Positions 46,308 to 54,826 of a stretch of DNA of 64,000 nucleotides are shown piece after piece. Within the stretch, counting starts at the first letter, position 1. Every line of letters begins with the position of its first letter. Made by a program: the position numbers and the translations under genes. The DNA lies in IMG/VR virus record IMGVR_UViG_3300050030_000093. One strand, given 5' to 3'. The notes below the pieces were generated by a model. It did not search any database. It saw only the letters and a list, made by a program, of their open reading frames with translations, and was not told where the DNA came from. Source of the stretch: an uncultured virus (IMG/VR IMGVR_UViG_3300050030_000093) (taxonomy: Duplodnaviria; Heunggongvirae; Uroviricota; Caudoviricetes).

Positions 46308-46643
46308 TTATTCGGTTGGTACTTCAACCTTCACTAACACCGTGTACTTCTCCAAAATTCTATCAATTGTTTTTTGATATTTTTGAAGTGGATGACCGTC
46401 TTCCGGATAATGATTTTCAATCTGAGAAAAACTCCTGCCTCTGGCAATACCATAAGCTGCGTACATTACTCGTAAATCTTCTCTGTTAGTCTGATGCTTA
46501 TAAGTTGCTTCACTTGCAGGCATCTTTCTTTCACCGATGATTTTATCGGTTTTTCTCTGATTTTTATAGAACTTCTGAAGTTCAACTTTGTCTTTAATAT
46601 CGGCTTTCATTTTTGCGATATCGGTTTTTGCTATTGTTTCCAT
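46308..46643 (-). CDS. hypothetical phage protein downstream of amber uORF
   Basis: 111-aa ORF, R..Y.AY...RGRS..QIE. Confidence 0.8.
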   Translation of the reverse strand: METIAKTDIAKMKADIKDKVELQKFYKNQRKTDKIIGERKMPASEATYKHQTNREDLRVMYAAYGIARGRSFSQIENHYPEDGHPLQKYQKTIDRILEKYTVLVKVEVPTE

Positions 46644-47646: not shown

Positions 47647-48006
47647 TTAATTTTTAATTGCGACTTTAACTTCTTCAAGTGCTAAGTCTAAATTCTGCGT
47701 AATTTTACGCATTTCGGGCGTACCATAATAGCAAATACTGGTCAACTGGTTGTCAATGTCGGGTTCTGTGAATGCAACAACATTAGCACCATTGTCCTGT
47801 AATTTGTAAAATAGTCTTTGAAGTCTTTCTTCGTTATCAATCGATAACGAAATGAGATAATTTGAATCTCTTTTCCACTCTTGAAATTCTGAGGGAAAAT
47901 GCTGAATGAATTCAGCAATTGCGTGCCCAGATTGAACTAATTGTTGTCCAGCACTCAAATCTTGTCGAACAACAGTAACTAATTTTATTATCTACTTATC
48001 TTTCAT
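47647..48006 (-). CDS. pth2: peptidyl-tRNA hydrolase, Pth2 type, with in-frame TAG at codon 5
   Basis: MKDK*IIKLVTVVRQDLSAGQQLVQSGHA..F.EPD....T; ATG overlaps the upstream TGA. Confidence 0.8.
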
Positions 48007-48707
48007 ATTAAAAAATTTAATTTGTTTTCAATATTTTCATTATACCTTATTCTTATTAATTGTATTAAATTTTCATCACAATATTTATTTTTTATATTAT
48101 CTCTTCTTTGAATATTATTAAATTCTTCAGTTCCACCAAAAGCATGATTTGGCTTAAAATGTTGAATGCCATCAAATTCAATCATAATATTTAAATTAGG
48201 TAAATAAAAATCAAATTTTAATTTACCAATATCTTTACAATTATTAAACATTTTATTTCGAATATATGTTATTCGATTTTTATTCAAAAAAGATTTTATT
48301 TTTAATTCACCCTTTGAATCGTTACAAATTGGACATCCAATACCTCTCATGTGGTGAGCAGGTGCTTGTTCAAAAACACCATGTATTGGGCATATTATAT
48401 CGACATGAGTTTTATTGTTAAAATAATTGACCAAGGAATAATCATATTTATTACTATGTGTTTTATTCGAAATAATAATAAATTCGGTTTGGGAAAGTTT
48501 CAATTTATTTGCTTTATATTCGATAGCACATTTCGGACATCCAGATTTTCTAAGGATATGATTTTTTGGAGTTTGTTCAAAAACATTATGTTTTGAACAA
48601 ATTATTCTAATTTTTGTTGAAACGTTCTTGTAATTGACTAATGAATAGTTGTATTTTTCGCCATGAATTTTTTTGGCTTCTTTAATGAAGGACTCAGTAT
48701 CGTACAT
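48003..48707 (-). CDS. endonuclease with C..HG zinc repeats and Vsr/DUF559-like domain
   Basis: IICPIHGVFEQ..H..G.GCP.C; SKGE..FDFYLP..IEFDGIQH. Confidence 0.8.
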   Translation of the reverse strand: MYDTESFIKEAKKIHGEKYNYSLVNYKNVSTKIRIICSKHNVFEQTPKNHILRKSGCPKCAIEYKANKLKLSQTEFIIISNKTHSNKYDYSLVNYFNNKTHVDIICPIHGVFEQAPAHHMRGIGCPICNDSKGELKIKSFLNKNRITYIRNKMFNNCKDIGKLKFDFYLPNLNIMIEFDGIQHFKPNHAFGGTEEFNNIQRRDNIKNKYCDENLIQLIRIRYNENIENKLNFLI

Positions 48708-48859
48708 AATGCTTTTATTTACTATAAATACTAAGTTAGTTACGAATTGATAACCTATTTTTTCATTTTTGTTAACCTACTTCATTGTTTTAAATTTAAT
48801 TGTTAATAATACTCTGCGGTATATAAATACTTAGAGAGTTCAAAATTACTACAATTATT

Positions 48860-49189
48860 TTAATTTCCTAATAAATTATCAATTTCTTTTTTGTCTTGTT
48901 TTTTTATTCTTGCCCTTGCCTGTGATGTTATGTAATCTCTTTCTGCCCGTACTTGTTTTCTTTTTGCCCTGACAGTCTTTGCATTATGCCAATGTGAACC
49001 ATCTGAACAATACATGTTATCGAATCCCTCTTGACTAATATCATTATCAGGTTGGTGCACTAATACTTCATTCCTGCCTGCAATTTTATTTGCATCATGA
49101 ATAAAAGGAGTTAATTTTCTCTGAGGCTTATGTCCATATAGACCAAAACCCCTTCTGTTGCTTTTCAAATCTTTTTTAGTTCTACTCAT
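48860..49189 (-). CDS. basic hypothetical protein
   Basis: MSRT start, R/K-rich. Confidence 0.65.
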   Translation of the reverse strand: MSRTKKDLKSNRRGFGLYGHKPQRKLTPFIHDANKIAGRNEVLVHQPDNDISQEGFDNMYCSDGSHWHNAKTVRAKRKQVRAERDYITSQARARIKKQDKKEIDNLLGN

Positions 49190-49339
49190 TAATTAACTTT
49201 TAGAATGTGTATCACTTTTATGTCCTCTATCTGCATATGCAGGACAAAATTTTGGATTGCATGATGATAATAACATCATTGTCAAAACAAATAAAATTAT
49301 AAAAATCAATTTAATTTTTTTCATATTCATAAATTTTTG

Positions 49340-49411
49340 AGGGCATAACGGGACTCGAACCCGTGGCAATTGGTTTTAGAGACCAATGTTCTACCTCTGA
49401 ACTATATGCCC
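49340..49411 (-). tRNA. amber suppressor tRNA (anticodon CUA)
   Basis: Full cloverleaf; anticodon arm TTGGT-CTCTAAA-ACCAA. Confidence 0.9.
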
Positions 49412-54752: not shown

Positions 54753-54826
54753 CACACCGAATGGGATTCGAACCACATATCGTACCCCTGAGACGGGGCA
54801 ATTCTTTCCAGTTAAACTACCGGTGC
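54753..54826 (-). tRNA. atypical or degenerate tRNA, probably Glu(CTC)
   Basis: Cloverleaf, but anticodon loop is 6 or 8 nt (GTCTCA) and T-stem is bulged. Confidence 0.55.

Follow-up and report, generated by a model that had tools for sequence, protein, structure and literature searches.

In a 64,000-nucleotide (nt) stretch of DNA from an uncultured tailed phage (IMG/VR record IMGVR_UViG_3300050030_000093), which we call the window, a gene for a Pth2-fold protein carries an in-frame TAG between its start codon and its domain, and a tRNA gene with the matching anticodon, CUA, lies 1.3 kb upstream on the same strand. We refer to a stop codon in this position as a gate. As far as sequences can tell, comparison with relatives shows a stop under selection that matches the tRNA and is set ahead of the first strand of the fold, and expression of the full-length gene very probably depends on readthrough of it. 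We also favor, by a modest measure, the idea that the gate may sense the balance between suppressor and release factor and so turn on tRNA clean-up proteins.

The gated Pth2-fold gene and its suppressor tRNA

All features of the gate lie on the minus strand. The start codon, ATG (48006-48004), overlaps the TGA of the upstream gene as ATGA and opens a four-residue leader, M-K-D-K (ATG AAA GAT AAG; 47995..48006). The gate TAG follows at 47992..47994 and is itself followed by ATA, giving a purine at position +4 and a T at +5. The 114 codons after the gate are open and encode the Pth2-fold domain (47647..47991), which ends at a TAA (47649-47647). Read on the minus strand, the 5' end is ATG AAA GAT AAG TAG ATA ATA AAA TTA GTT ACT GTT GTT CGA CAA GAT TTG. 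The open reading frame (ORF) called under genetic code 11 begins at a TTG (47958) past the first strand of the fold, and a start there would remove that strand, including an invariant R and an invariant D. The first-pass annotation, made from the letters of the window, had placed the ATG, the TAG, and the tRNA gene as given here, and all of its coordinates held on recheck.

The gate codons are the same in two other IMG/VR contigs, and a contig from run X19 (2020), which is not among the runs flagged as a possible source of the window, spans 47968-48275 with 0 differences. Since independent contigs carry identical letters, TAG rather than CAG or TAC at 47992-47994, a sequencing error is excluded. 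TAG also serves as an ordinary stop elsewhere, as had been proposed: the window uses code 11, TAG terminates 8 of its 97 non-nested minus-strand ORFs of at least 70 amino acids (aa), and no long coding-strand gene in it is split by TAG. The DNA is AT-rich and of phage type, ARAGORN called 19 tRNAs in it, and the sequencing runs that contain it are peat metagenomes.

The tRNA-CUA gene (49339..49411, minus strand; called by ARAGORN) has the anticodon loop CU-CUA-AA and matches Rfam family RF00005 at 74.9 bits, the top Rfam tRNA score in the window. It folds as an ordinary class I cloverleaf with canonical D and T loops. ARAGORN labels it tRNA-Pyl, a label we rejected on the strength of this class I structure and of the Rfam search, in which RF00005 alone reached the gathering threshold and the pyrrolysine tRNA family gave no match. 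Elsewhere in the window, tRNAs with the unusual anticodons ACC (Gly) and TAT (Ile) were present, and a weak tRNA-like Rfam match (31.8 bits; 54753-54826, minus strand) was not called by ARAGORN.

The protein encoded past the stop begins K-L-V-T-V-V-R-Q-D-L and matches PF01981 (PTH2) from the second residue after the stop, at 32.1 bits against a cutoff of 23. In an AlphaFold model (predicted local distance difference test [pLDDT] score, 94), residues 3 to 9 past the stop form the first strand. The model superimposes on Pyrococcus Pth2 (1wn2) with a Z score of 14.5 and a root mean square deviation of 1.9 Å over 104 residues; the next, unrelated match had a Z score of 4.3. The equivalog models were missed by a wide margin (TIGR00283, 25.7 of 82 bits; NF003314, 22.5 of 126 bits). 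Invariant in the family are R, D, Q, H, E-P-D, Q, and T, conserved down to 34% identity. The catalytic residues of Pth2 are, on the numbering we take to apply, Lys18, Asp86, and Thr90. In a hidden Markov model alignment to a solved Pth2 structure (2zv3), the canonical lysine is replaced by Y or Q, the aspartate by the E of the invariant E-P-D (which stands in place of the D-A-G of Pth2), and the threonine by D or N. In yeast Pth2, the substitution D174N impairs activity, according to a preprint (bioRxiv 10.1101/2024.11.20.624519). A second gated phage subfamily (locus L243 and the phages Phosso and Atu_ph07) retains the canonical lysine. The Pth2-type identity proposed in the first-pass annotation thus stood as far as the fold is concerned (Z score, PF01981) and failed at the canonical lysine and the equivalog scores. 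Because lysine and threonine are both replaced, we describe the product as a Pth2-fold protein, and its peptidyl-tRNA hydrolase activity is an assumption.

Conservation of the gate and its match to the anticodon

We collected relatives from IMG/VR, from JGI metagenomes (best 80 of 256), from GTDB (2 loci), and from named GenBank phages; L numbers designate the loci. After removal of 5 partial matches and 1 cut at its 5' end, 183 of the 189 profile matches remained and fell into 120 clusters at 95% identity, which are not phylogenetically independent and over-sample the clade of the window. A gate, scored as a stop lying between start codon and domain, was present in 111 of these 120 clusters (107 TAG and 4 TAA) and in 47 of 57 clusters at 70% identity. 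The homologs thus do not carry a sense codon at this place. The stop fell at codons 2 to 5 in 107 of the 111 gated clusters and lay 2 to 16 codons ahead of the domain. Gated copies were found in cultured phages of Tenacibaculum, Erwinia, Yersinia, Salmonella, Acinetobacter, Ralstonia, Stenotrophomonas, and Sinorhizobium, so that the hosts include Bacteroidota and Proteobacteria. Both loci from the GTDB scan were gated, one of them, a 362,763-nt contig, being identical with an IMG/VR record.

Nine clusters were scored otherwise: XacN1, CM1, L081, L082, RaK2, Hallingskeid, Lak-B7, and two distant paralogs. XacN1 and CM1 encode fusions of an HD domain to Pth; each begins ATG AAG TAG and has its stop at the fused gene's new start. 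In L081 and L082, a TAG interrupts the domain, and the other genes of these loci are unsplit. RaK2 and Hallingskeid have an open Pth gene that has lost E-P-D, and a genome-wide pattern search found no tRNA-CUA in either. Lak-B7, a code-15 phage (coverage of 0.60 to 0.88, unlike the window), has an open Pth2-like gene. An in-frame ATG-AAT-ATC-TAA lies upstream of this gene and a tRNA-UUA is present, but an ATG follows the TAA, and we scored the gene as ungated. The Lak-B7 tRNA-UUA (L018:7341-7413) is two genes upstream of it.

The choice of stop departs from the background. TAG accounts for 117 of 1,293 natural stops in the flanks and for 107 of the 111 gates, which excludes chance as the origin of the gate. 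A purine occupies +4 in 110 of 111 gates versus 56 of 117 natural TAG stops, and the stop is followed by a purine and T (R-T) in 103 of 111 gates versus 27 of 117 natural TAG stops; R-T was also found in 31 of the 37 gates whose domain is at least four codons away. The sequence context after the stop therefore looks selected. A purine after a stop is known to favor suppressors over release factor 1 (RF1). An alternative start between stop and domain was present in 1 of 110 gated copies, which argues against initiation downstream of the gate.

Stops also occur, as second or sole TAGs, deep within the domain of L015, L053, L062, L084, L081, and L082; in-domain stops were found at domain positions 32, 44, and 58. 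In L015, L053, and L062, the second amber stands at domain position 32, and these loci often carry two different tRNA-CUA genes, one with the loop CU-CUA-AA and one with G37.

The first-pass annotation had proposed, as a check, to look for a conserved early TAG that occurs together with a tRNA-CUA. A tRNA-CUA was present in the fetched locus for 92 of the 107 TAG-gated clusters. The 15 without one comprise 9 with no more than 620 nt of upstream sequence, 1 whose tRNA-CUA is 13 kb away, 3 with an atypical tRNA-like gene elsewhere that has a CUA loop, and 2 in which none was found. Where the gate is TAA, the tRNA changes with it. L079, L212, and L228 have a tRNA-UUA and no tRNA-CUA, and L227 has no upstream DNA. 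In a tree of 78 rows and 105 columns, in which many forks are unresolved and which we used for branch placement only, its label statistics being weak since ungrouped rows do not count in them, L079 branches outside a well-supported clade in which L212 and L228 sit among TAG relatives; the switch between TAG and TAA therefore happened at least twice. The L079 copy also has a frameshift. A third pairing rests on a single case, Agrobacterium phage Atu_ph07 (MF403008.1), in which a TGA-gated Pth2 gene (L428:1432-1881), preceded by a Shine-Dalgarno-like GAAAGG, accompanies a tRNA-UCA (L431:1470-1544). This tRNA has a short arm and is labeled SeC by ARAGORN, and no tRNA-CUA was found among the pattern matches in this phage; it is probably an opal suppressor. 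Phosso, a relative of Atu_ph07, has a TAG gate and two tRNA-CUA genes. The best evidence for decoding of the gate stop by the tRNA is this covariation of stop with anticodon (TAG/CUA, TAA/UUA, TGA/UCA); together with conservation of the gate, it supports the first-pass proposal that full-length Pth would depend on readthrough by the phage tRNA.

Among 107 distinct suppressor tRNAs of the related loci, 85 have the loop CU-CUA-AA. Their discriminator bases are divided among A (49), U (31), G (25), and C (2); the acceptor ends are unconstrained and share no common identity. The tRNA-CUA and the Pth gene shared a strand in all 108 cases and were a median of 707 nt apart. A tRNA of Salmonella phage Arash annotated as tRNA-Phe (OQ632216.1; L089:6307-6381) has the anticodon CUA. 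Three phage records of 630 to 640 kb (L132, L136, and L141; about 1460-1545) contain tRNA-like genes with a CUA loop, missed or miscalled by ARAGORN, in which the D arm is odd or the loop has 8 nt.

Other gated families, neighboring genes, and the history of the locus

Two further families carry such a stop. An HD-domain protein (weak PF01966 match; phrog_14850) is beside or fused to Pth in 18 loci. Among the 12 unfused or overlapping copies that we read, all 7 that stand alone have an early TAG of their own, and none of the 5 that overlap the end of the Pth gene has one. In the other, which we call family X, a TAG precedes the domain in every one of 54 distinct sequences, drawn from the best 80 of 254 loci, and a tRNA-CUA accompanies 45 of them (L279:6596-7144, minus strand; L348 to L427). 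Its members are about 185 aa long, or 80 aa in a short form, share the motif V-F-H-F-N-K-K-H-L...P-M-W, and usually lie just behind the tRNA-CUA. Of 52 gates in family X, 46 have ATT after the stop. Short X genes are also found behind gated Pth, and three of these begin with an ATG ATG TAG of their own. No Pth or HD gene was found within 5 kb of the family X loci. Searches for a function of family X returned no PHROG, no usable Atlas match, and no Foldseek match in PDB at an E value of 0.001 (model pLDDT, 83), and the gene is unannotated in Rhizobium phage RHph_I1_18. Two single genes with an ATG..TAG-RT start in tRNA-CUA loci (L240:9564-10286, minus strand; L295:2317-2706, plus strand) are candidates for additional gated families. 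In the record nearest to the window, G001 (a 65-kb fragment, 14% complete), no HD gene was found.

We also ran the comparison in reverse, starting from the tRNA. This gave at least 117 tRNA-CUA matches, 80 of them with flanks, 66 of those confirmed by ARAGORN, and 44 apparently from code-11 genomes by a crude coverage rule. Among the matches listed, 12 of the 44 had a gated Pth (4 of them on contigs that the forward comparison had also gathered) and 9 had family X. Open Pth2-like genes beside a tRNA-CUA form a sister group (L246, L262, L270, L271, L275, L278, L285, L287, L292, and L306); they are mostly behind or fused to a gene with the motif H-x-A-Y...R-G. That gene resembles the window gene at 46308-46643, weakly by profile.

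The gene at 46308..46643 (minus strand), downstream of the gated gene, has the motif A-Y-x-x-x-R-G, is itself ungated, and is no more than 5 kb from Pth in 49 of 119 loci. It had no Pfam, PHROG, or informative Atlas match and is a possible member of the module. Just upstream of the tRNA-CUA, two window genes (50463-50179 and 50178-49909, minus strand) are joined in frame by TAG-ATG. The first gene of this pair ends in TAG in 20 of 30 loci, with an ATG immediately after it in 18, and a readthrough fusion is possible. A gene for ribosomal protein L7/L12 (52340-52717, minus strand; PF00542, PF16320) lies between the tRNA cluster and the gated gene, and 11 of 119 loci have such a gene close to Pth.

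An inserted zinc-finger gene of 234 codons (48003..48707, minus strand) separates the former 5' end of the Pth gene from its present one. Pfam finds only DUF723/DUF4379 in it; by motif resemblance, we presume it to be a mobile endonuclease. Two RNA runs, X23 and X24, touched this inserted gene and 5/30 and 3/30 bins, respectively, and did not cover the gated gene. Homologs lie directly upstream of Pth in L038 (68%) and L063 (51%). The relic 5' end that the first-pass annotation had reported at 48766 (48752..48766, minus strand; ATG AAA AAA TAG GTT, then frameshifted) is there, with the same start as in L034 and L035. We found another at 48774..48785 (minus strand; ATG AAG TAG GTT) that looks more ancestral. 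It shares the reading frame of the inserted gene and lies 26 codons ahead of that gene's ATG, so that the code-15 frame 48785-48003 is open with TAG at codon 3, and its upstream context is that of the uninserted relatives L189, L192, and L217. L038 has the same upstream insertion and MKDK-amber start as the window, and L012 and L063 have other insertions with relic 5' ends. Because the rebuilt 5' ends kept the stop, they fit selection for it.

Readings of the gate and known systems

Our favored reading of the gate as a sensor would run as follows. The phage would keep the standard code, place one stop just past the start of a few genes (a Pth2-fold gene and, in relatives, HD and X genes), and encode a tRNA whose anticodon matches that stop. 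Where the release factor wins at the stop, translation would terminate and release a peptide of 2 to 5 residues; where the charged suppressor wins, the stop would be read through, and any amino acid would suffice. The inserted residue indeed seems not to matter, because the stop position moves and the tRNAs share a loop but no acceptor identity. Output would then track how much charged suppressor there is relative to active release factor, going up as the suppressor accumulates or when infection leaves termination weak or overloaded. In the genomes of the related loci, 72% of stops are TAA, so an ochre suppressor would have to be weak or conditional; it would normally lose, and output would therefore be low and free to rise when termination weakens. 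HD proteins have been assigned to tRNA repair in jumbo phages. The gated products may be enzymes that clean up tRNA 3' ends, freeing tRNA from peptidyl-tRNA and damaged ends of the kind that disturbed termination would produce.

Several observations weigh against this reading. The window subfamily has lost the canonical lysine and scores far under the equivalog cutoffs. Mycobacterium phage Bxz1 begins ATG TAG GTG, in which the GTG has the better Shine-Dalgarno spacing and may be the true start, bypassing the gate, and XacN1 has an ATG five codons past its TAG that could serve as a bypass. Neither an HD nor a family X gene is present in the 64-kb window, and family X matched no known fold. Among the matches listed in the reverse comparison, 8 of 44 had an open Pth2-like gene and 15 had neither gated family within 8 kb; a sister clade of ungated Pth thus adjoins tRNA-CUA. 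Phage Summit has a suppressor tRNA and no PF01981 match. Finally, natural TAG stops do not have nearer backup stops (median of 13 codons versus 9), and since backup stops are not enriched, there is no sign of genome-wide adaptation to strong suppression.

The same features can be read in other ways. One, which we consider unlikely, is negative feedback: the gated proteins would act on the suppressor tRNA itself, by deacylation or 3' processing, and hold readthrough low, while the real work of the suppressor would lie elsewhere, for example in extending or fusing host or phage proteins. The tRNA and Pth are indeed adjacent even in ungated loci (the 8 among the matches listed, and Lak-B7 with its tRNA-UUA), the active-site residues differ from those of canonical Pth2, as a changed substrate would need, and the in-frame TAG-ATG junction kept in 18 of 30 loci could be another target. 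However, three unrelated cargo families share the gate, family X has neither Pth nor HD within 5 kb, and the acceptor ends of the suppressors offer no common feature for an enzyme to single out. Unlikely too, and slightly more so, is control of timing or leakiness without any sensing of stress, in which a cargo harmful to translation early or in excess would be delayed until the phage tRNA matures. Its logic is that of an engineered leak dampener (PMC7969014) and of the late-gene model for recoded phages (bioRxiv 10.1101/2021.08.26.457843). The double gates of L015, L053, L062, and L084 would lower output further, and tRNA and gene always share a strand; but cotranscribed neighbors a median of 707 nt apart would give little delay, and ungated versions exist in viable phages (RaK2 and the sister clade).

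The remaining explanations account for far less. ATT is a known rare start codon, and GTT and GTA are very poor ones. Termination on the mini-ORF and reinitiation at an adjacent ATT, GTT, GTA, or ATA codon, without readthrough, would suit the R-T-N codons that follow 103 of 111 gates (ATT in 45) and the ATT of the family X gates, yet 53 of the 111 gates are followed by GTT or GTA, and the use of the rarest stop, its change with the anticodon, and the stops at domain positions 32, 44, and 58 would go unexplained; we regard this as very improbable. Hardly credible is a special, pyrrolysine-like residue needed by the protein, although ARAGORN and some GenBank records label the tRNA Pyl: the leader is variable and the stop moves freely within it, there are TAA and TGA versions of the gate, and the tRNA is of ordinary class I, matching RF00005 only. 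A pseudogene, a sequencing error, or a remnant of genome-wide recoding has a negligible claim. The TAA-gated L079 does have a frameshift, and L081 and L082 could be partly recoded genomes, but independent contigs agree, the domain residues are invariant down to 34% identity, the flanking genes follow code 11, and conservation of the gate with its stop/anticodon covariation refutes this group of explanations. We also discarded a sensor of lysine starvation, suggested by AAG before the stop (41 of 111 gates versus 42 of 1,330 second codons, a count dominated by one clade), since starvation would block the leader itself.

A wider version of our favored reading is tentative, and we hold it at a little under even. 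The dedicated suppressor tRNA would be the sensor of a small regulon in standard-code phages of several host phyla, in which stops at codons 2 to 5 matched to the anticodon (TAG, TAA, or TGA) would measure termination capacity and switch on tRNA repair and ribosome rescue, possibly against host defenses that act on tRNA ends or release factors; the cassette might also be a seed of genome-wide recoding. The gate itself gives many suppressor tRNAs of standard-code phages, so far without a known target, a likely one, and a natural pair of nonsense codon and suppressor is very probably in use as an expression gate. There is also a consequence for annotation: the records of pT24, fHe-Yen9-04, RsoM2USA, Kaldavass, Arash, ME3, Atu_ph07, Phosso, and RHph_I1_18 either lack the gene or give it in truncated form. 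Scanning for start-proximal stops beside suppressor tRNAs finds further members, as it did with family X.

Pyrrolysine and selenocysteine decoding likewise use a dedicated tRNA to read a stop in selected genes. Unlike those systems, the gate has no fixed position, no conserved tRNA identity, and no sign that the residue matters. The archaeal and eukaryotic Pth2 enzymes (PF01981, TIGR00283; 1wn2, 2zv3) have the same fold; here the lysine is replaced and D-A-G has become E-P-D. An early internal stop likewise makes output report on termination capacity in the prfB (release factor 2) frameshift and in the class I release factor of Mimivirus and Megavirus, where the product is a release factor and the bypass is frameshifting or near-cognate readthrough (PMC3521657). 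Here, in contrast, the phage encodes a suppressor tRNA cognate to the stop and dedicated to it, and Pth2-fold, HD, and uncharacterized proteins are the products. For code-15 and code-4 phages, too, a suppressor tRNA has been proposed to control genes with in-frame stops, but these phages recode many late and lysis genes with one residue (bioRxiv 10.1101/2021.08.26.457843, accessible text). The gated phages keep code 11, have one stop at the gene start, and use all three stops; the window shares with code-15 phages a phage-encoded tRNA-CUA and not the TAG-split genes. In the same preprint, Borges et al. read the suppressors of standard-code phages as a step before recoding, and the word "hydrolase" is absent from its accessible text. 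Iyer et al. considered PTH2 in jumbo phages a likely ribosome-rescue enzyme, and the part of their paper available contains neither "suppressor" nor a mention of a stop (PMC7824862). The Summit genome paper, in the sections accessible, looked for the target of the suppressor and called its purpose unknown (PMC9022506). The engineered leak dampener uses a nonsense codon and a suppressor tRNA as an AND gate (PMC7969014, available part); it is synthetic, and the phage gate is its natural, widespread counterpart. We found no account of a start-proximal stop gate in the literature within reach, which excluded subscription journals and bioRxiv supplements. The arrangement is real and widespread, belongs to none of the systems compared, and is apparently undescribed.

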